A model generated the notes under the pieces. It did no database searches and was not told the DNA's origin. It saw only the letters and a list, made by a program, of their open reading frames with translations. A stretch of 36,228 bases of DNA, taken from the IMG/VR virus record IMGVR_UViG_3300006052_000019, positions 1-36,228 of that record, one strand, 5' to 3'. Shown one piece after another: positions 9,132-18,458 of the stretch (within the stretch, counting starts at the first letter, position 1; the number at the start of each line of letters is the position of its first letter). This DNA comes from a virus (taxonomy: Duplodnaviria > Caudoviricetes). The position numbers were made by a program, and so were the translations under genes.

Positions 9132-12100
9132 TCAATACTGGGATCGTTCCTGCACAGACTGCAAGTGAGACCTCTCAGCCTCAGTTGCGCCTCTCCAGAA
9201 TTTCTTTTGCTGTGACTTGCTAAGGCCAACTGTATTGGCTGCCCGGTACATCATCTGGCGCTCCTTGCCGTAGATGTTGTTCTCGTCCATGAGCTTTTCG
9301 GCCTTCTCGGTGTCGCCCTGCTTGATCGCTTTGATGATGTCTGGCCTTGCCTCTTGCACGTCCATCTGGTGGCTCGTTTGATCGGAGTGCATGGCGCCCA
9401 TCGCTTCGCCGCCTGGGTAGCCCTTGCTCGTCGTGACGGTAAGGGGAGGCGGGATCAGCGGACCGGCAATCGTCGAGGCGTCGAGAGTCTTGCCGTTGCC
9501 GGTGAGCATGTTATGCAAGGCCTCTATCTCTCGCATTGGCAGCTGCGCCTGTATGAAGTGCTTGGCGATCTTGGCGCCGGCGGTTGCCAGGTCGTCGTCT
9601 GGCCGATAGATCCGGCGGCCGAAGTTGTCTTGATTGGCGAACGCTTCCGTTACCGGCTTGGCCAGGGTTGACATCTTGTTCTTGAGCATGGTTCCTGGCT
9701 TGGTCAACCATCCCTCCATCTCCTCGCCGATCTTCCCGAACGGCGTGCGGCCGTAGACAGCGGTGCCGTCCTCGTCGTGGCCCATCAGGAAGCGGTCGCG
9801 CTTGCCTTCCTCGTTCTCGCCCTGGGGCAGGAACGACTTGATCGTGTCGGGCCAGCTGAGCGGGTTCAGGACCGTATGGATCGGATGGTCGAACACCTGT
9901 TGCGTGCTTTCGTGCAAGAGGTTGGTGTACTTTTCCCACTGATCCCCAAGCCCCTGGGTGTCGTACCAGGCGCGGTCCTTGTCTTTGTTGTCGCGTATTG
10001 CGCCGATGCCAACCTGCAGCATGGCGTTGAGGCCATACATGAGTGCTATATCAACCGCGACACCGGCGCGCGCCTTGTGGGCCGCGAACGAGATCGCCTT
10101 GCCCGCCTCCTCCTGATTAAGCTCCTGGCGCAGCTGGGACTTGATGTCGCGCGGCAGGCCAGAGATTGCGTCCTTCATCGCACCAAGGTTCCCCAGGGTG
10201 AACGACCTGGAGAACATCATCACGTTGGCAACCTTGCGCCCCATGGCCGATATCGACTCTGGCGGCAGCGCGCCTGCGTACCGGTTGGCAATGTGCGCAG
10301 CCACCAGGGCAGAGGCCCGATCGCTGTGACCATCCTTCATCATGCGGTTGTAGATCTCGTTGGCGATGCCGGCTTGGAGCTCTGCCACCCGGTCCCACAA
10401 CAAGGTGCCGTGGACAAAGTCTCCGGCTCGGTCGATGCCGCCCTTGATAGCTTCGCCGGCGCCTTTGTTCACCAGGCCTACCGCGCCCCCAATACCCTTG
10501 GCCAGAAGTCCGCGACCCTTCTCGAGGTCCGGCTCTCGGCCGATCGAAGTGATGTCCTCGTACATGCCCTGGCGCCCGATCGGGACATAGCCGGCACGGA
10601 TGAACTTTTGCATCTTTTCCGGATCCTGAAGCATCGCGCGCCCGCTCTTCCAGAAGCCGGTGCCAGGCAGCATCTTCAAGCCCATGACCGGAAACGCGCG
10701 GCCGACCTCCACGCCCAGGTGAATGAACGGGCTCCACATGATCGCGGTGGTTGCGCCGTTCTTCATGGCCAGCAGCGCCTTGTAGATCTTGCCCGACGGC
10801 TGCGTGAGCACGGCCTTGAGCGGTCCCTCGAACTCCTTGGGAATCATCCGCTGCCTGACCGTCCAGTTCAGCTTTCCCTTCTCGTCCTCCTCGGCCCGAT
10901 AGCTCTTGAGGGCCGGGTGATCGAACGTGACGAACTCGCGCGGATCCATGGCCAGGTCCTGCGAGAGCTCCTGAATCCGGTTGACGAGCTCGCGCCCGGC
11001 GATCGCTTTCTCCAGGCGGGCCATGGCGATCGGCATCGTGCGGATGTCCTTGATGAAGCCGGCGCCGGTGCCGAATTTTGCCTTGAGCGCCTCCTCAGCC
11101 TCGGCCGTTGTGAGGTGCTTGCGGCCTGTCAGGTTGCTTGACTTGGTCGTCAGGCCGCCAGGGCCCGTGCCGCGGTTGCCAAACTCCGTGAGGTGTCCGA
11201 CCTCGCCGTCTTCACCGATCAAGGCGGCCACGCGGGGGACCCAGTAGTCGACGCCGCTGCCCTCGTACATGCCGGCGGCCTTGGCGCGCTGCATGAGCGC
11301 CTCGCCGTGCGCAGTCAGGAAGTTCATGACGTCCTGCTGATCCTTCGGGAGAGATGCCAGGCCCTTGGTGGGATCCTCAGCGGCGCCGGTGCGGCGCATG
11401 TCGTTCTCTTCGTCGCCAGCTTCCCACATCCGCTTGAGTTGCTCGGGCGTGAAATCCTTGGTCAGGATCTCGTGGAACCGCTGATAGTTCCAGGACGCTT
11501 CGCGCATGTGGTTGGCAAAGTCCTTGACCATCGCCATGGACCGTTCGGACCCGCGGACCATGGGTGATACTTTCGACAGGTAGTCCTGGACGATGCCCTC
11601 GCTCCAGTCGCGCACCTGCTTGCCGACATTAGATTCCCAGAGGCGCTTGAAGATGCCTGGCTTTTTGGCTAGCTCCGGCGCCTGCTGCTGCCCAGGGATC
11701 GAGTACAGGATGCTCGGATTGTTTTTATCGAACGCGCCACTGTTGCCTATTGCAGACTTGATCTGTGACTTATCGAACACTTTGTATTCGGTACCACCTG
11801 CTGTCTCGCCATTGCCCCCATGGATTGCTCCATCAAATCCAGCGTCCTTTAATTTTTTGACAAAGTCCTTGTCGTCAAGCAAATGATAGGCATCCATGTA
11901 GAGCTTGTTGATCTCGCCAGGATTTCGCTTAACCATGTCAGCGACAGAATCGTATTTGCCGGAGAAGTTCTCTTGCCAGTTGTCGGTCCCCTGGATGATG
12001 TCGGCATGCTCAAGAGCAACACGCTTGGCTTCTTCTGGGCCAAGAGTCTTTGCTATGTGCGATATATCAACAAATGGATCGCCTGTCTTATCGTTGATCC

Positions 12101-15100
12101 ATGGCTTTTCGATCCTAAGGTAAGCGGGTATGACACGCGAATGCTCTGCCGTACCGTCTAACTTCAGGTCGTTCGGCGTTTGCGCATAAGCGTTGGCTGC
12201 TTCCTTGTCACCGAATGATATGGAACCCCTGCGAGACTGGATCTCCTGATCCGTCTCGCCATGCTCGCCACGGTATACGCGAATCGGGTTGCCTTCATCA
12301 TCCTTGGCCTTGCTATCTCCGAACCAATTTTTGAATTCATCGGTATCGGGAGCCTTGAGGCTGTAAGAAATGCGGCCGTCTTCCGGGTCCCAGGTGCCTT
12401 TGTTACCTGTCGCGGATTTCAATTGCTTGGGGTCGAACACCGCGAGAGTTTCATCGCTGGCGTTATGCTCTCTCTCGTAAAATCCGTCGTGATTCCCACG
12501 AATATATTTTTGCGCTTCCGGCCGTTCAATCGTTTGCCAATCGCCCATGCTCAAACGATCACGCAAAGACGATTTCATTTGTTGACCATCATCGTCCCGG
12601 TAAGGCGGCAACTTGTCTATGCCAGGATCGTTTTTTTCAAGATGTCTTGCTAGAGCTTCAACGTGTTGTTTGTTATTTGGATCCCATGGATTTTCCGCTC
12701 GCACATACAGCTTGTGGACGTTGAGGCCCTCAGGGTTTTTGCCGTACTTAAACTCCGACACTCCAATCGCATCGTGCGGATTCGCGGCCGTAAAAATTGC
12801 TCCAGCAACTCCGTCTCTTTCTACGCCTGGACGAAATGACTCGATATCATTGGCAGTTGTAGCGTGATACATGGGCCGAGGCTCACGACGCTTCATCGCT
12901 TCATTTTTTGCGGCGTGGAAAGAATCGTATTCATCCTGCATCCGCTGAATAAACGAATCAAACGCTTTCTTGCCGTAATACTTTTCCGCAAAACTGCGTC
13001 CGTATTCGTCGTCCGAAGAGGAGGCTTTTGCATATCGCTCGTCGTTGATTTTGCGTTCGGCTTCAACGTCTGGTTTTTTGGGAGGCACAACGCTTTCAAA
13101 TCTACGGCCACCATGAACGACGCTGTTCCCAAACCATCGCTTAAAAGCTGGCGTATCGGTTTGCTTTTCTTCTTCCTTTAGTCTGGCTGCGTTCCCCAGT
13201 TCTTCAGGTTCGCTGGCACCATGCTCGACAGTTCCGGGTCTTTGCTCTCGTCCTGGTCGTTGCCCATCGCCAGATAATTCTCCGGCGTAAGAGGAATCCC
13301 GTTTTCCCGCATGTATTTCTGAACCGTATCCTCGCCACTCCGGTTCGCGGACGCCGCCTGAGAGGGCTCTGAGTTGTTCGCGGGCCTGATCTGGGCTGAT
13401 CTTCCCCGCGCTTGCTTCATTCCAGATCCTGTCCGCTTCACTTTTCATCCCCTTCTTTGATGCGGCCTCATACATGCCGCGCACAGCTTCCCAAGAAATT
13501 GACTGCATCTCTCTGGGCAACAACTGTCGCTCAACGGCCGCTCGACGATACGCCTCTTGAACTAGCGGGTAAACACCGCGGATACCGGTAGCAGCAGATC
13601 GTGCTGGTCCTGGTTCCCCAGGTTGTCCGCTACCAAACAAGTGCGCCACCTCAAGATCGGATTGCCCAAGCGGGCGCAACAAGGCTGCTGCCATTGCGTG
13701 CGTATCTGCCGTCAGGAATCCGTGCGGCGAGTTGGGGTCGACAATGTTGTGGTAGAAATTTCTGACCTTGTGCATCTCGCCTAGTTGCGCGCTGATGTTT
13801 GATCGCGATCCGTCGTGGAATATGGATATGGCCTTGGCCATTGGCTTTAATCCGGCGCCCCACGCGGTGACGGCCTCTTCGCCACCCTTGGGGGTCTTTG
13901 CAAAGTCGGCGAAGCCGCCTTCCGGAGTAACAAGACGGAAGCGCCGATCGTTGTGCTCCTCATCGAACGACTTGATCCACATGGCTTGGCCAAGGTCATT
14001 GCCTTCGAGTTCACGAAGCGTCTTCCCTTTGACCGAATCGTAGAGCGATTGGTTGAACGCCCTTCCCTTTGGGTTCGTGCTGCGCTCGACAAAAGCGCGA
14101 GCGTTAGCGTCCATCTCCGGAGTCCACGGCCGGTCCATGTGTTTTTTGAGGGCTGTCGCAATACGCTCCATCTGAGACACGTTTACGTCCCAACGCGTCT
14201 TTGGTGAGAGCGCGGCAAGCATGCCGGCAGACTGTCGCGTGGTGATATCGAACCGCTTGGCGAATCTGTTGGAGATATTGTTGGCGCCGTCGTACCATTT
14301 TTTGGCGCGGCCGCGTATTTGATCCGAGAACTGATCGTGCAACCACAGGAGATTGTCCTTCATGTGGTTGATCATTTGCTCGGCCTTGGACATCGGCGTG
14401 CCATCAAGACCCTTAAAGTTCGAGTATTTGCTCATTACGCCGACGTTTTGCTCGACCTTGTCCGGCTCGGTTTGGTGTGTCTCCCAATCCGACAACAATG
14501 GTTTTTCTTGTTCGTGCGCCACCGTTTTGAGACGGCCCTTGTAAAGCGCCGTCGGGTTGCGCGCTCCCACCCAGTCTGGTCCTTCGTCCGAACCCATCCG
14601 CGCAGCGTTGCCCATGGGCTGCACGGCCTTCATGGATCCGTTGGCCGCCGATCGCAGCGCCGAACGAGTCAGGCCTCGCAGGACGCCGGCGTCCACCTTG
14701 CCGATCCCGAAATTCTTGTAGAGGAAAGCTTTGGCGCCATCCATCATCTTTCCGATAGGACCGCGGTCGTAGCCTGTTTCCACCAGGTGGGCTGCCACCT
14801 CGCGCATGAAAGCCTGGCCACCCTCTGCCATCATCAGCTGGCCAGACTTCTCGTGCCCGGCCGGGAAGGTGTAATTTTTCTTGACCGTGTCCCACACCTT
14901 CTTGATCTCTGGGTCGGTCTGCGCACGATCCTTGAGGTCCTTAAGCAGCTGAGCGTACTTGTCAAAACCAAGCATGCGCGACAGGCCGTAATGCTCACCG
15001 ACCTCGTGCATCATGAGCGACGGCGATGTATGCGGATCAGCGCGATCAGTGTAGATTTCGACGTGGGCCGGCTCGCCGTTCCTGGCTGCTATGTACATAG

Positions 15101-18100
15101 CCTGGGCGCGCGGGTCGAGCTTGTCGCCCAACGCGCTTTGGTCTGAAGGAATAATCCGAACGATGCCCCGGTCTTGGAGCTTCTTGGCGGTGCCGTCGCC
15201 AAAAACTCGGTCGATCTCGTCCTCGTGAGCACCGACACGCTGCCGCTCTTCTACCGGTGCCAGGAGTTGATCTACTTTTTCCCGGCTTTTCTTGGGACTG
15301 GTTTGCCCTTTGCCGGCCTTGTCACTGGCAGGCTTACTTGCTACTATTGGTTCGGAAGGAGAAGCAATGAACGGTGCCGAAGTACTCGCCTCTGTCCCGC
15401 CCGGTTCGGTCTTCTTCGACGTCGACGGCGTCCCGGCCGTCCGGTTCCCGGATGGCTCCTGCTGGAATTTCTGGGGCGGCTCCAAGGACCCATTCCCGCC
15501 GGCGCGCGTGAGCTCTTTCGGCGACAAGGTGCCACCAGCCGAGTTCGCCGCCCTGGTCGACTCGTCCGTCAAACGCTGATTCTCGGCGTCTTTGGCGGCC
15601 CCGTACAGGTCGGACTGGGCCGCTGTCAGTTCCTTGATGCGGTCGCCGTCCTTCTTTGGATCAAGGTCCCGTCTCAGCTCGTACAGATGGTGGCCAATGT
15701 CCTTGGATGCGATCGTCTCTGGCGTATGGATCTGGACCTCGGCGATATGTCCGTCGGGCATTTGCACGTTTATCAGGACATCGCGGTAACCCTCTTCCGT
15801 TGGCTTCGCAAAACGGTCTTTGAGTTTAACCACCGCGTCCTTGCCAAACGCCGCCTTGATGGCCTCTATGGCCTTGGGAACTTCGGCAGATGAATGAATC
15901 ACGATGGAACCGCGCAAGAGGTCTTTGAGACCCGTCTCGTCGCCCTTGTAGTCGGACCAGAGCTTCTGAATGGTCCGGCCTTCTTCCTTTATCTTGGCAA
16001 TGACGGCGTCGCCACCCACAGCCGAGGCGGCGGCGCGCAGCTTGTCCGAATAGTCAGCCAGGTTGCGCTTGGCGCTTTCGATCATTGGCGCAATCCTCTT
16101 GCGCCCTTCGACAAACTGCTCCGGCGTAGGCTTGGGACCTTCAGGCTTGGGCTGTTCCAGGAACTTGCGGACCCGGTCCATGATCGGCTTGGGGATGATC
16201 CTGTCAAGCGATACCCCGGTGAAGTGGGTGTTGGCGTCCTTGGCTGGCGCGCCTTCCTCGCCTTCAATCCGCACGGGCAACTTCTTCCAGCCAAACTCGC
16301 GCGCGGTCGTGACCGTGCCGTTGCCGTCGACCACGTCGAACTTGCCATCCGCGCGCCGGCGCACGGTGATCGGGTCGCGACGAGGCACCGCGCCGCGCGC
16401 TGCCGCCTCCATGCGCTTTGGCGCGTTCTCCAGGCCCTGCTTGTTTTCGGATTCAGTCTTGGTCGACAAGAGGTCGTCCAGGCTTACCGTGTGCGTGTCC
16501 GGCGTCAGGTTGAAGTAGGCCCCGTGGTCCTCGGGCAGTTCGGTCGGGCGCTCCTTTTTGTCGACCACCCGCTTGAGGTATTCCTTGGTGGTCTCGCCCT
16601 CGCGCTGCGGCTCGTACTCGTCTACAGGTCTTCCTTGGTCGGCTCCGGCCGCTCCGCCGCGGTCAGACCCGGATTGCTGAACCTCTGGTCCGGCTTGAGG
16701 ATGCTCGCCGCCGTCGGTGGTGCCACCGCCTTGTTGATCCCGTACGGCGTCCCTCCCTGCTTCCACGGGCTGGGTTTCTTCAGCTGCTCGACGTACTGCT
16801 GGTTCTTGAACCTCGCCAGCTGGTCGTGACTCATCGCTTGCGCCGCCTGCACCAGGCTCGCGCTGCCGATCGGTTGCGGTATCGGGTTCATTGATTTTCC
16901 TTATCTCTGCCATGAATCCGGGACCGTGCTCCGGATGCTGCTCTGCAGCAGCCTGGACTGCGTCAGGATCTTTGTGCAGCGCCTCGCGCACCTCGGTCAG
17001 GTCTAGCCCGTGTTCCGGGCCCAGGCCGTGCAGTTCTAGGCTGGTACGGTCGCGCGCTTCCTCTATGAGATCTTTGCTGGTCTTGCCTTTTTGCTCGGTT
17101 GCCGCGCCGGAATTTGGGACAGAGGATGGCGGCTCTACCTCTCCAGTCGGAGAGGACTCCGGCGCGGCAGACTGTGCTGCGCGATCGCGCAGGTTTTTCC
17201 ATTCGTTTCGTTCGGCGTCGGTGAGAAATTGCGCATGCTCCCCAACCTCAACCGTGGCGTCTTTACGGCCAGCTTCCCGTGCCTGCTGGTCAGCGATGGT
17301 AATCCGGGTGCCCTCGGCCTTGCGGGTGAGATCAGCCAGGCGGGACTGCTCCTGATCCGAAAGCGCACCCTTCCCAGGGCCCGTAGGAGCCCCAGGTTCG
17401 ATTCCAATGCCGCCGGGCTCCGGAGCTACTGCCCGGAGTTTCTCGACGGTTGTGACCCCTTCTGGAGCCTCCTGGCGGCCTTCCAGCGTTTGCGGGGCCG
17501 GCGTCGGCGTCTGTCCGTTTAGGAGTTCCTGGATCTGACGGGCTTGATCTTCCGGGGTAGCCCGGCCGCCCACTATGCTGGCCGCCTTGTGCGCCGCGCC
17601 AAAAGCGGCGGTCTGGACCACGCCGCCAATGACAGCATCTTGGATCTGTTGCGGCAGCGTTTTGGCCCACTGCTCAAAGGTCATGTCCGGATTGGCCACA
17701 GCCGCATCGATGGCCGATGACACAACCGAGGAGGCCGCACCAAGGCCACTGTTGACGGCCGCGTCAGCGACAAACTTGCGCAAACTATTGGCCCCACCCA
17801 GGCGTTCGATAAACCTTCCTACCGGGATAGCGCCAGCGGCGGCATTGACGGCGCCTACCCCAATGCCCGCACCCAAAGCTTCAGCCCGGCTGCCGCCACG
17901 CGCCGATACGTTGGCCACTTCTTCGCCACCAGCTTGCAAGCCAAAAGCCGCCGCCGCCGGTATGACGCTGCCCGTAATAACGCTGGCGGCCACCGCCGGA
18001 GCCGACACCGCGACGCCGGCGGCTGCATCAAAAGCTTTCTCGCCGATCCCGTGACCCATCTCAGGATGAGTAACTTCCGCCTCTAGCTGGGCCTGCTTTA

Positions 18101-18458
18101 CTTCGCGTATACCGCGCTGGACCATGTCTTCGTTGCCAACCAAGTTTCCGACCGCCGCATGGATACCGCCGGCCAGGGAACCAGACTTGGTCAATGTCCC
18201 GTAGGTGCGCTTAAACGATTCGTAGATGTAACCAAGGTCAGCGCCGATCCCGCCCTCTGGCCGTGGCGCATCTTCCTGGTCACGCGCCACGCCGGTAACC
18301 CCGCTGGGCGGGATAACAGCATCTGGCTCCGGCTGCGGCTTGAGCCAGTCCTGGGATACCGGGTGTCCGTTGGCCTGCAACTTGGCGAACAGGTCCGCCT
18401 TGGACATGCCATCGGGCACGCCTTGAACCGTAGTACCGTCTGGCAGTTGAACGTCCAT
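9132..18458 (-). CDS. 3108-aa large polyvalent / internal virion (ejection) protein
   Basis: Last of the internal-virion genes. ParB-like about 16260-16500 (PITV...VVDGN), RelA/SpoT-like about 15590-16100 (KDLLRG, GYRD, EVQIHT), zincin HEVGEH 14991-15008, DUF7178-like about 13440-14350 (WY, AALSP, KVRNF, TADTH), two ART-like domains about 11700-13160 (FK.WFG.S...YH/YR...VF...Q.KSA.GN), LPD38-like C-terminus. Confidence 0.85.
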   Translation of the reverse strand: MDVQLPDGTTVQGVPDGMSKADLFAKLQANGHPVSQDWLKPQPEPDAVIPPSGVTGVARDQEDAPRPEGGIGADLGYIYESFKRTYGTLTKSGSLAGGIHAAVGNLVGNEDMVQRGIREVKQAQLEAEVTHPEMGHGIGEKAFDAAAGVAVSAPAVAASVITGSVIPAAAAFGLQAGGEEVANVSARGGSRAEALGAGIGVGAVNAAAGAIPVGRFIERLGGANSLRKFVADAAVNSGLGAASSVVSSAIDAAVANPDMTFEQWAKTLPQQIQDAVIGGVVQTAAFGAAHKAASIVGGRATPEDQARQIQELLNGQTPTPAPQTLEGRQEAPEGVTTVEKLRAVAPEPGGIGIEPGAPTGPGKGALSDQEQSRLADLTRKAEGTRITIADQQAREAGRKDATVEVGEHAQFLTDAERNEWKNLRDRAAQSAAPESSPTGEVEPPSSVPNSGAATEQKGKTSKDLIEEARDRTSLELHGLGPEHGLDLTEVREALHKDPDAVQAAAEQHPEHGPGFMAEIRKINEPDTATDRQREPGAGGASDESRPAGEVQEPAVRRAAEETQPVEAGRDAVRDQQGGGTTDGGEHPQAGPEVQQSGSDRGGAAGADQGRPVDEYEPQREGETTKEYLKRVVDKKERPTELPEDHGAYFNLTPDTHTVSLDDLLSTKTESENKQGLENAPKRMEAAARGAVPRRDPITVRRRADGKFDVVDGNGTVTTAREFGWKKLPVRIEGEEGAPAKDANTHFTGVSLDRIIPKPIMDRVRKFLEQPKPEGPKPTPEQFVEGRKRIAPMIESAKRNLADYSDKLRAAASAVGGDAVIAKIKEEGRTIQKLWSDYKGDETGLKDLLRGSIVIHSSAEVPKAIEAIKAAFGKDAVVKLKDRFAKPTEEGYRDVLINVQMPDGHIAEVQIHTPETIASKDIGHHLYELRRDLDPKKDGDRIKELTAAQSDLYGAAKDAENQRLTDESTRAANSAGGTLSPKELTRAGGNGSLEPPQKFQQEPSGNRTAGTPSTSKKTEPGGTEASTSAPFIASPSEPIVASKPASDKAGKGQTSPKKSREKVDQLLAPVEERQRVGAHEDEIDRVFGDGTAKKLQDRGIVRIIPSDQSALGDKLDPRAQAMYIAARNGEPAHVEIYTDRADPHTSPSLMMHEVGEHYGLSRMLGFDKYAQLLKDLKDRAQTDPEIKKVWDTVKKNYTFPAGHEKSGQLMMAEGGQAFMREVAAHLVETGYDRGPIGKMMDGAKAFLYKNFGIGKVDAGVLRGLTRSALRSAANGSMKAVQPMGNAARMGSDEGPDWVGARNPTALYKGRLKTVAHEQEKPLLSDWETHQTEPDKVEQNVGVMSKYSNFKGLDGTPMSKAEQMINHMKDNLLWLHDQFSDQIRGRAKKWYDGANNISNRFAKRFDITTRQSAGMLAALSPKTRWDVNVSQMERIATALKKHMDRPWTPEMDANARAFVERSTNPKGRAFNQSLYDSVKGKTLRELEGNDLGQAMWIKSFDEEHNDRRFRLVTPEGGFADFAKTPKGGEEAVTAWGAGLKPMAKAISIFHDGSRSNISAQLGEMHKVRNFYHNIVDPNSPHGFLTADTHAMAAALLRPLGQSDLEVAHLFGSGQPGEPGPARSAATGIRGVYPLVQEAYRRAAVERQLLPREMQSISWEAVRGMYEAASKKGMKSEADRIWNEASAGKISPDQAREQLRALSGGVREPEWRGYGSEIHAGKRDSSYAGELSGDGQRPGREQRPGTVEHGASEPEELGNAARLKEEEKQTDTPAFKRWFGNSVVHGGRRFESVVPPKKPDVEAERKINDERYAKASSSDDEYGRSFAEKYYGKKAFDSFIQRMQDEYDSFHAAKNEAMKRREPRPMYHATTANDIESFRPGVERDGVAGAIFTAANPHDAIGVSEFKYGKNPEGLNVHKLYVRAENPWDPNNKQHVEALARHLEKNDPGIDKLPPYRDDDGQQMKSSLRDRLSMGDWQTIERPEAQKYIRGNHDGFYEREHNASDETLAVFDPKQLKSATGNKGTWDPEDGRISYSLKAPDTDEFKNWFGDSKAKDDEGNPIRVYRGEHGETDQEIQSRRGSISFGDKEAANAYAQTPNDLKLDGTAEHSRVIPAYLRIEKPWINDKTGDPFVDISHIAKTLGPEEAKRVALEHADIIQGTDNWQENFSGKYDSVADMVKRNPGEINKLYMDAYHLLDDKDFVKKLKDAGFDGAIHGGNGETAGGTEYKVFDKSQIKSAIGNSGAFDKNNPSILYSIPGQQQAPELAKKPGIFKRLWESNVGKQVRDWSEGIVQDYLSKVSPMVRGSERSMAMVKDFANHMREASWNYQRFHEILTKDFTPEQLKRMWEAGDEENDMRRTGAAEDPTKGLASLPKDQQDVMNFLTAHGEALMQRAKAAGMYEGSGVDYWVPRVAALIGEDGEVGHLTEFGNRGTGPGGLTTKSSNLTGRKHLTTAEAEEALKAKFGTGAGFIKDIRTMPIAMARLEKAIAGRELVNRIQELSQDLAMDPREFVTFDHPALKSYRAEEDEKGKLNWTVRQRMIPKEFEGPLKAVLTQPSGKIYKALLAMKNGATTAIMWSPFIHLGVEVGRAFPVMGLKMLPGTGFWKSGRAMLQDPEKMQKFIRAGYVPIGRQGMYEDITSIGREPDLEKGRGLLAKGIGGAVGLVNKGAGEAIKGGIDRAGDFVHGTLLWDRVAELQAGIANEIYNRMMKDGHSDRASALVAAHIANRYAGALPPESISAMGRKVANVMMFSRSFTLGNLGAMKDAISGLPRDIKSQLRQELNQEEAGKAISFAAHKARAGVAVDIALMYGLNAMLQVGIGAIRDNKDKDRAWYDTQGLGDQWEKYTNLLHESTQQVFDHPIHTVLNPLSWPDTIKSFLPQGENEEGKRDRFLMGHDEDGTAVYGRTPFGKIGEEMEGWLTKPGTMLKNKMSTLAKPVTEAFANQDNFGRRIYRPDDDLATAGAKIAKHFIQAQLPMREIEALHNMLTGNGKTLDASTIAGPLIPPPLTVTTSKGYPGGEAMGAMHSDQTSHQMDVQEARPDIIKAIKQGDTEKAEKLMDENNIYGKERQMMYRAANTVGLSKSQQKKFWRGATEAERSHLQSVQERSQY
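13178..13441 (-). CDS. nested +1-frame small protein within the polyvalent gene
   Basis: GAAGGGG SD before GTG 13441 (alternative ATG 13420 with AGGA). Protein-like core DTVQKYMRENGIPLTPENYLAM...DPELSSMVPANL; the main frame here is a low-complexity linker. Confidence 0.6.
   Translation of the reverse strand: MKRTGSGMKQARGRSAQIRPANNSEPSQAASANRSGEDTVQKYMRENGIPLTPENYLAMGNDQDESKDPELSSMVPANLKNWGTQPD
15319..15361 (+). promoter_or_regulatory. antisense sigma70 promoter and RBS inside the polyvalent gene
   Basis: TTGTCA (15319-24), N17, TACTAT (15342-47) with extended -10 TG (15339-40); AAGGAG at 15356-61; ATG 15367. Confidence 0.75.
15367..15579 (+). CDS. nested antisense 70-aa protein, candidate antidote to the RelA/SpoT-like domain
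   Basis: Own promoter and SD. Globular-looking MNGAEVLASVPPGSVFFDVDGVPAVRFPDGSCWNFWGGSKDPFPPARVSSFGDKVPPAEFAALVDSSVKR. Lies in the Ser/Thr/Gly/Pro linker that begins where the RelA/SpoT-like domain ends. Confidence 0.72.
   Translation: MNGAEVLASVPPGSVFFDVDGVPAVRFPDGSCWNFWGGSKDPFPPARVSSFGDKVPPAEFAALVDSSVKR
16622..16891 (-). CDS. nested +1-frame 89-aa ORF within the polyvalent gene
   Basis: TAAGGA-AAATCA-ATG; the ORF coincides with an R/G/E/Q/D-rich linker of the main frame just before ParB. Confidence 0.5.
   Translation of the reverse strand: MNPIPQPIGSASLVQAAQAMSHDQLARFKNQQYVEQLKKPSPWKQGGTPYGINKAVAPPTAASILKPDQRFSNPGLTAAERPEPTKEDL

Follow-up and report, generated by a model that had tools for sequence, protein, structure and literature searches.

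A small out-of-frame gene accompanies the DUF7178 domain of giant phage polyvalent proteins and may encode an inhibitor of it

Does an open reading frame lying out of frame inside a very long phage gene encode a protein of its own, and if so, to which part of the surrounding gene does that protein belong? The locus that raises these questions is found in a 36,228-base linear virus record, estimated to be 53% complete, the whole of which was analysed and is called the window here. Its longest gene, referred to below as the host gene, closes a capsid and internal-virion-protein module downstream of the major head, structural and internal-virion-protein genes, and its product has the make-up of a phage polyvalent protein, combining several effector and LPD domains in a single chain encoded in a virion module (Table 1). 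In this protein Pfam recognizes two ART-PolyVal stretches as well as a DUF7178 domain above the cut-off (E 5.8e-23). The motifs WYDGAN, AALSP, HKVRNF, TADTH and QSISWE occur at host aa 1388, 1415, 1563, 1583 and 1652, and the motif-defined domain that the first-pass annotation had placed ahead of the nested frame is indeed DUF7178.

Table 1. Positions in the window of the host gene, its DUF7178 domain and the nested small gene.
Feature	Position	Strand	Remarks
Host gene, 3108-aa polyvalent protein	9132..18458	minus	ParB-like (weak), RelA/SpoT, DUF7178, two ART-PolyVal, LPD38 (weak)
DUF7178 / phrog_3842 domain, host aa ~1357-1708	13335..14390	minus	predicted HhH-GPD glycosylase fold
Predicted active-site segment	13704..13772	minus	HhH Lys (HKVRNF, K1564), Gly/Pro loop, Asp (TADTH, D1585)
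Shine-Dalgarno-like site GAAGGGG, upstream of GTG 13441	13448..13455	minus	anti-SD duplex -7.9 kcal/mol
Nested +1-frame gene, 87 aa from GTG	13441..13178	minus	from ORF list; 80 aa from ATG 13420
Conserved ~54-aa core of nested gene	13190-13351	minus	four short helices predicted, net charge -5

The nested frame is the +1 frame over host aa 1673-1760, on the same strand. Both the GAAGGGG site and the core sequence that had been quoted for it are present, the former upstream of the GTG; the in-frame ATG, a second possible start, has the weaker anti-SD duplex of the two (-4.1 against -7.9 kcal/mol). Over the core, 28 of 52 host residues are Gly, Arg, Glu or Ser, in keeping with the linker of these residues that had been described for the main frame, and in the window the ORF does stop just before the first ART-like domain. 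Its other border requires correction: the ORF adjoins the DUF7178 domain as claimed, but its start falls inside the last two helices of the domain and not after its end, and the span 13178-14350 originally assigned to the ORF takes in the domain as well. Stop-free +1 stretches of at least 55 codons occur 20 times in the host gene, so the length of the ORF by itself is uninformative. A frameshift error in the window is unlikely, because contig pieces from two other runs that partly cover the stretch match it with zero differing letters and zero gaps. Another run contains the stretch in full and may be its source. No RNA holder of the stretch is listed.

A single-sequence search with the window core yielded no candidate in a set of 5.8 billion, one match only (E=5) among GenBank phages, and one match, to an unrelated repeat protein, among 1.84 billion representatives; Atlas scores for the core were 0.76 and 0.78 and serve as leads only. 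The exact sequence of either translation, from the GTG or from the ATG, is absent from a 15-billion-protein collection. The domain leads further. Among its first 17 loci, six carry a comparable +1 ORF in the corresponding position, and a six-row core profile matched 59 free-standing database proteins, 55-96 aa long and without exception unnamed or hypothetical. In some loci the family likewise stands as a separate gene, behind the host stop or facing the host. In a search of 26,853 six-frame segments, an iterated family profile built without window-derived rows gave the window ORF 37.6 bits and E 2.6e-9, where the first seed alignment used to pick the rows of that profile did include the window.

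The resulting family is defined by ~55 conserved residues with the core G-x-D-(amphipathic helix)-G-x-P-L-T-R-E-N-Y-L-x-x-A-Y-P-(loop)-A-E-x-E-x-x-L-P, in which the G.PLTRENYL motif that the first-pass annotation had likened to small phage proteins is recognizable. The window copy is divergent, keeping most of this core and missing the YP motif. Cores are net-negative in 66 of 74 clusters (median -4, window -5), and 95% of rows contain a Glu. Leu, Pro and Glu are abundant in the small frame, and the overlapping host frame consists to 53% of Gly, Ala, Pro and Ser. The small protein is modelled with low confidence (pLDDT 66) as four short helices, and no solved fold matched the model at Z of at least 5; the ~55-aa helical core contains no nuclease motif. 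Pfam, PHROG and NCBIfam returned no family for 65 members or for the window ORF, tblastn of two further members against GenBank phages found no match, and no locus was found for a fusion protein (P0071). In GenBank OP947163 only the host CDS is annotated over its copy of the small gene.

Signals of separate translation recur across the family. A start codon with an anti-SD duplex of -6 kcal/mol or better occurs in 34 of 47 nested clusters, versus 30 of 324 control windows taken from the +1 frame of the domain, and several loci have a +1 stop immediately ahead of the start codon of the small gene. Difference rates at codon positions 1, 2 and 3 of the small gene are 0.154, 0.155 and 0.353 (242 close pairs), and those of host codons inside the domain are 0.089, 0.022 and 0.442. 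The second codon position of the small gene is the third of the host, the freest position inside the domain; in the overlap it is no longer the freest, indicating that the wobble there belongs to the small gene. The frame constraint that had been suggested as a check is seen, with wobble following the +1 frame in the overlap. Pairwise identity is likewise higher in the small frame than in the host frame (0.34 vs 0.24 for distant and 0.73 vs 0.59 for close pairs), a comparison that favours the small gene because the alignment was made on it, and for this reason we rely on the codon-position test instead. With an open frame, a start codon, a ribosome-binding site and purifying selection on its own frame all present, comparative sequence analysis confirms the nested 87-codon ORF as a real gene.

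To which domain this gene belongs was addressed in a sample of domain loci made up of the 80 top-ranking relatives each from 541 viral and from 515 metagenome ones, 31 genome loci and the first 17; the sample leans to close relatives, includes duplicates and counts the phage of the window itself once (L099). The anchor motif is present in 206 of the 208 loci, and L181 and L201 were left out for lack of a matched anchor. The iterated profile places the family behind the domain in 158 of these 206 loci: nested in the +1 frame in 110, overlapping the host end in 35 (32 in +1, 3 in +2), after the host stop in 6, and convergent on the opposite strand in 7. The remaining 48 comprise 45 loci without the family at 15 bits, two that are too short and one with a weak distant match only. 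Clustered at 80% domain identity, 74 of 102 clusters have the family, 27 lack it and one is too short. Nearly every match is where the domain is, since 158 of the 159 profile matches of at least 15 bits in 1.29 Mb sit 100-700 nt behind its QSISWE anchor.

The linkage holds in the other direction too. A DNA pattern built from the small-gene motif with no reference to the domain picked out 94 viral loci, all 94 of which are tied to the domain: it lies directly upstream in 92, one is a cut contig with the tail of the domain, and one is convergent. This pattern favours one subfamily, and many of its contigs repeat viral relatives already sampled. An extra locus reached via a database homologue again proved to have the domain with a nested gene; in two whole bacterial assemblies the sole profile match is at the domain, and each of four domain-carrying whole records has a profile match, once in three of them and twice in the other. 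Among cultured strains the pair is present in Jannaschia seohaensis DSM 25227 (L182) and Pseudofulvimonas gallinarii DSM 21944 (L181). Distances between domains and between partners correlate (Mantel r 0.48, shuffles up to 0.27), as expected from gene linkage alone. As far as gene order can tell, these counts establish that the small gene is tied to the preceding DUF7178 domain, one of the two partners that the first-pass annotation had considered.

Within this association the layout is fluid. The host runs at least 150 residues past the anchor in 36 of 47 nested clusters and at least 400 in 24. A quickly inferred maximum-likelihood tree covers 98 domains, 4 of the 102 clusters having been left out as short, and on it the nested state needs 13 changes and the adjacent state 9, and well-supported branches force 5 of each. 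The layout has thus switched several times on the domain tree, which does not give the direction of switching.

The association is not obligatory. In 27 of 102 clusters the domain motifs are intact and the family is absent; the cultured Roseobacter phage CRP-738 has no profile match in its complete 53.8-kb genome, in a search in which the positive controls matched, and two further complete or near-complete records carry the domain without the family. These three records indicate that the domain can do without the small partner. A second in-frame domain follows DUF7178 in 15 of the 27 clusters without the family and in none of the 74 with it. It weakly resembles S-AdoMet lyase (E 5e-4 and 3e-3, below the cut-off, in 2 of 10 tested), and behind it lie two other nested +1 families, in 13 and 8 loci. 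Since the loci of this type fall mostly in one weakly supported part of the tree, they represent few events. About six more family-less clusters have other or divergent +1 ORFs, as judged by eye, and no candidate nested ORF was found in another ~6, including the L010 group, L003, L007 and CRP-738. Either the family-less enzymes are controlled otherwise, or the domain is non-toxic and the partner optional.

What the partnered domain might do is suggested by its predicted structure. The model (~350 aa) is good (pLDDT 83, pTM 0.79), and in a wide structural search ranks 1-21 of 48,161 chains are all HhH-GPD glycosylases or kin of that fold. The best match is the Thermotoga 8-oxoguanine glycosylase 3n0u (Z 7.6, rmsd 4.5, 188 aligned), where a Z below 8 can reflect a common arrangement; other top-ranked folds are endonuclease III, AlkA, MagIII, ROS1, AGOG, MutY, OGG1 and the queuine salvage enzyme. 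Foldseek returned no PDB match to the domain with E below 0.001, and a sequence and profile search of PDB sequences gave nothing relevant. In the model, residues 196-203 and 207-217 (domain model numbering) form a helix-turn-helix whose second helix opens with the Lys of HKVRNF (K208), a Gly/Pro loop comes next, and the Asp of TxDTH (D229) precedes the following helix (230-237). This Lys and Asp are invariant in 64 of 64 diverse aligned rows, and the motifs are matched in 204 of 206 loci. We take the layout to be that of bifunctional HhH-GPD glycosylase/AP-lyases, with the two residues presumably equivalent to the catalytic ones.

Given the moderate Z, the glycosylase-like reading is drawn from the uniform fold list together with the motifs, and on these grounds an HhH-GPD glycosylase fold is predicted with moderate confidence, in line with the HhH glycosylase-like domain that had been proposed upstream of the nested gene. 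The modelled Lys/Asp pair suggests that the domain cuts bases from DNA. Its substrate cannot be read from the fold, as the same fold also hydrolyses a queuosine nucleotide and modifies phage thymidine.

We think it probable, on gene linkage, charge and analogy, that the small acidic protein is the cognate inhibitor, or immunity protein, of a glycosylase/AP-lyase domain delivered by the virion. The host protein is itself probably packaged and ejected, as we infer from the position of its gene among capsid, portal and internal-virion genes, and the virion would thereby bring the domain into the next host, where it would excise bases through its Lys and Asp. Enzyme and small protein would be made together from one late mRNA, and the acidic surface of the small protein would block the DNA-binding cleft of the enzyme while phage DNA is copied and packaged, protecting the phage during production of the enzyme, when its DNA is most exposed. 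On ejection the inhibitor would be left behind or released and the enzyme delivered alone. Small ORFs are reported behind 89.4% of MuF toxin genes (PMC5576092), and DNA mimicry is reported for Rehh immunity proteins, a role that the acidic surface of the small protein would also suit. Enzyme and small gene would move as one cassette, and nesting would arise because the cassette moves as a unit and the host frame runs on into further domains, reading through the small gene, which in that frame would serve as a linker rich in Gly, Ala, Pro and Ser. Where the domain is the last part of the chain, the small gene overlaps or follows the host stop.

The small protein might instead be a positive partner of the domain, that is, a folding chaperone, activator or specificity subunit, an explanation we consider unlikely enough to prefer inhibition and serious enough to weigh with care. 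The domain would then be a harmless repair enzyme, acting for instance on oxidised guanine in injected phage DNA, or a stripper of host defence marks. The linkage data are equally compatible with such a role, the best fold match is a repair enzyme, and a non-toxic enzyme easily explains why lineages without the family are viable. Acidity speaks for inhibition, a DNA-binding helper being more often basic, and so does the arrangement, as a small gene after an effector and the other nested ORFs behind effector-type domains fit the toxin-immunity pattern. To our knowledge the solved HhH-GPD repair enzymes work without a subunit of this kind, which also counts against a positive partner. It is improbable that the gene is a selfish or hitch-hiking linker insertion comparable to the HNH genes concealed within phage methylases, or that it acts as a regulatory ORF adjusting how much host protein is translated: out-of-frame insertions that keep the host frame open do exist (PMC11855218), but the ~55 conserved residues match no nuclease or other family, and the gene always occurs at one domain and is kept if the host stops earlier or the gene faces the host.

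The explanations that deny the ORF either its independence or its upstream partner fare worse. Being on the same strand, usually in +1, and beginning inside the last helices of the domain, it could be read as a C-terminal extension produced by programmed frameshifting that yields a shorter host protein; its own start and ribosome-binding site, the +1 stop directly before the start in several loci, and the occurrence of the family in +0, +2 and antisense positions make this very improbable. Hardly more credible, and if anything a shade less so, is a partner or inhibitor of the following ART-PolyVal domain, which the first-pass annotation had offered because in the window the ORF ends just before the first such domain. 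The family follows DUF7178 whatever comes next, including the 41 loci in which the host ends there and many hosts without an ART match (e.g. L002, L022, L008, L038 and L188), and ART domains elsewhere in the loci have no adjoining family match. We therefore rejected the ART reading, the linkage being to DUF7178 and independent of the presence of ART. That there is no gene at all, the conservation being a shadow of host-frame constraints, has next to no probability left; the failure of direct searches with the window core to find a true homologue would fit it, and it is already contradicted by wobble that follows the +1 frame and by conservation of the family where no host frame overlaps.

Beyond the inhibitor reading we offer a wider proposal, which we consider somewhat likelier to be wrong than right: giant phage ejection proteins may be strings of toxin cassettes with antidote genes hidden in their linkers, and DUF7178 a new virion-injected HhH glycosylase/AP-lyase weapon with a DNA-mimicking inhibitor. 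Hiding the antidote would allow an internal toxin domain to keep a co-translated inhibitor with the chain unbroken. A DNA-mimicking inhibitor of DUF7178 would, we presume, be the functional counterpart of PBS2 Ugi for the HhH superfamily. The company of the domain varies: in 26 host frames, some of them truncated where the locus ends, proteins of ~530 to more than 3,000 aa combine it with ART-PolyVal, LPD22/23/37, PBECR5, zeta, GNAT, InPase, DNA methylase and JAB domains. Their gene neighbours are portal, head, tail and internal-virion genes, and in CRP-738 the domain gene is located between the portal and coat genes. A sequence search with the host-frame linker over the nested ORF found no match, and no relatives of the antisense ORF or of the RelA/SpoT domain were found in viral contigs.

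If these readings hold, DUF7178, which is functionally uncharacterized and widespread in aquatic phages (~930 and ~1,100 stored stretches are estimated to carry its motifs), gains a testable function, and an unannotated family of small proteins is named as its partner. The pairing would account for the way in which polyvalent proteins might keep their internal effector domains in check while virions are assembled. OGG1, MUTYH and endonuclease III belong to the HhH-GPD superfamily, for which the small protein would provide a natural inhibitor should it inhibit an enzyme of this kind; and should the cassette proposal be true, linkers would point the way to effectors and to a reservoir of enzyme inhibitors that lack annotation. 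A literature search, outside which most subscription papers lay, found no paper that names DUF7178 and no account of its pairing with a small gene.

Several known systems share parts of this arrangement. The domain resembles HhH-GPD glycosylases (Tm1821 Ogg 3n0u, endonuclease III 2abk and AGOG 1xqo; also queuine salvage DUF2419 and phage PUGT gp46) in predicted fold, HhH Lys and downstream Asp, and differs from them in its ~10% identity, its ~350 aa with insertions, its place in virion-module proteins and its dedicated small gene. It matches Pfam DUF7178 (PF23802) and phrog_3842 above the Pfam cut-off, yet those models span ~200 aa and the subfamily described here ~350 aa. Its host proteins are like the phage polyvalent proteins of Iyer et al. 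2017 (PMC5512222), giant multi-domain virion-module proteins with ART-PolyVal, LPD22/23/37/38, RelA/SpoT, GNAT, PBECR5, InPase and zeta domains; the main text of that paper has no occurrence of 'glycosylase', 'overlapping' or 'helix-hairpin-helix', and nested partner genes do not appear in the passages searched.

Analogous too are phage and bacterial polymorphic toxin-immunity pairs, MuF toxins above all (Jamet et al. 2017, PMC5576092; Zhang et al. 2012, PMC3482391), which likewise have an enzyme domain on a phage structural-module protein and a small unannotated ORF directly downstream, an exact layout that recurs in 41 of our 158 loci; no HhH glycosylase toxin was found in the passages searched. 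Unlike MuF toxins, the window host and the 26 scanned host frames have no Pfam match to MuF, and the enzyme is often internal, as it is in the window, where it is not C-terminal, with the small gene nested out of frame (110 of 158). Nested out-of-frame genes are familiar from the Rz/Rz1 pair of lambda, in which Rz1 is a lysis subunit. The hidden HNH of ShiLan (PMC11855218) is likewise a full gene with its own start, overlooked by annotation, that lies out of frame within a longer one; it is a homing element, unlike the present gene, which is tied to one enzyme domain and matches no nuclease family. Unlike both ShiLan and Rz1, the small gene alternates among nested, adjacent and convergent layouts. 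Genes concealed out of frame within phage genes were thus already known, and the present locus contributes a defined enzyme-partner pair with two-way linkage, found in all layouts from separate to nested, together with the fold assignment of its domain.

The small gene that follows the DUF7178 domain, encoding a protein of about 55 aa, also occurs in settings that differ from its nested same-strand position in the window. At locus L305 (GenBank OP947163.1) it is nested on the minus strand at record positions 2159-2317, where it carries no annotation and the enclosing giant CDS is labelled a methyltransferase. At six other loci carrying the domain (L084, L089, L135, L147, L152, L270) it runs antisense to the host gene and overlaps the final host codons with its stop, an arrangement in which a promoter of its own would be needed. 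In some database proteins the small domain is fused N-terminal to a zeta-toxin-family domain (P0071) or present as a tandem duplicate (P0062, P0063), and in P0065 it is the terminal part of an unrelated protein; genomic contexts of P0071 and P0062-P0065 were looked for and not found.

Two other nested +1 families lie behind SAM-lyase-like domains. The second family, with motif P..HPL.GG.I.FG, lies about 850 nt past the QSISWE anchor, a motif near the end of the DUF7178 domain, and occurs at 13 loci (L110, L040, L054, L088, L105, L190 and related loci); here the glycosylase-like DUF7178 domain is directly followed by a SAM-lyase-like domain and then by the nested ORF. The third, with an LRASG motif (8 loci: L021, L066, L100, L102, L109, L127, L179, L192), lies about 860 nt past the anchor, downstream of a related SAM-lyase-like domain.

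Within the window, the antisense ORF has a strong ribosome-binding site (anti-SD duplex energy -8.8 kcal/mol) and is a candidate partner of the host protein's RelA/SpoT domain; a search for relatives that included viral contigs found none. The SD-like site of the 89-aa ORF scores -6.2 kcal/mol, and its product matched nothing in Pfam, PHROG or NCBIfam. This ORF is probably the 'first nested gene' of the first-pass annotation.

Further ORFs within the host gene of the window
Feature	Coordinates	Strand	Remarks
Antisense ORF, 69 aa	15370-15579	+	nested in host gene, directly past RelA/SpoT domain
+1-frame ORF, 89 aa	16622-16891	-	ATG start, SD-like AAGGA

Separately, the first ART-PolyVal domain of the host protein is apparently split by a helical insertion of ~65 aa (host aa ~1795-1860, about 13075-12880, minus strand), which seems to separate the WFG motif at the domain's N-terminus from the region that Pfam matches.

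The DUF7178 domain also occurs with its motifs intact where the partner family is absent, in Roseobacter phage CRP-738 gp40 (L304) and the L010 group. The C-terminal tail of these proteins is short, hydrophobic and then acidic, a sequence pattern that could represent a cis-acting cap.
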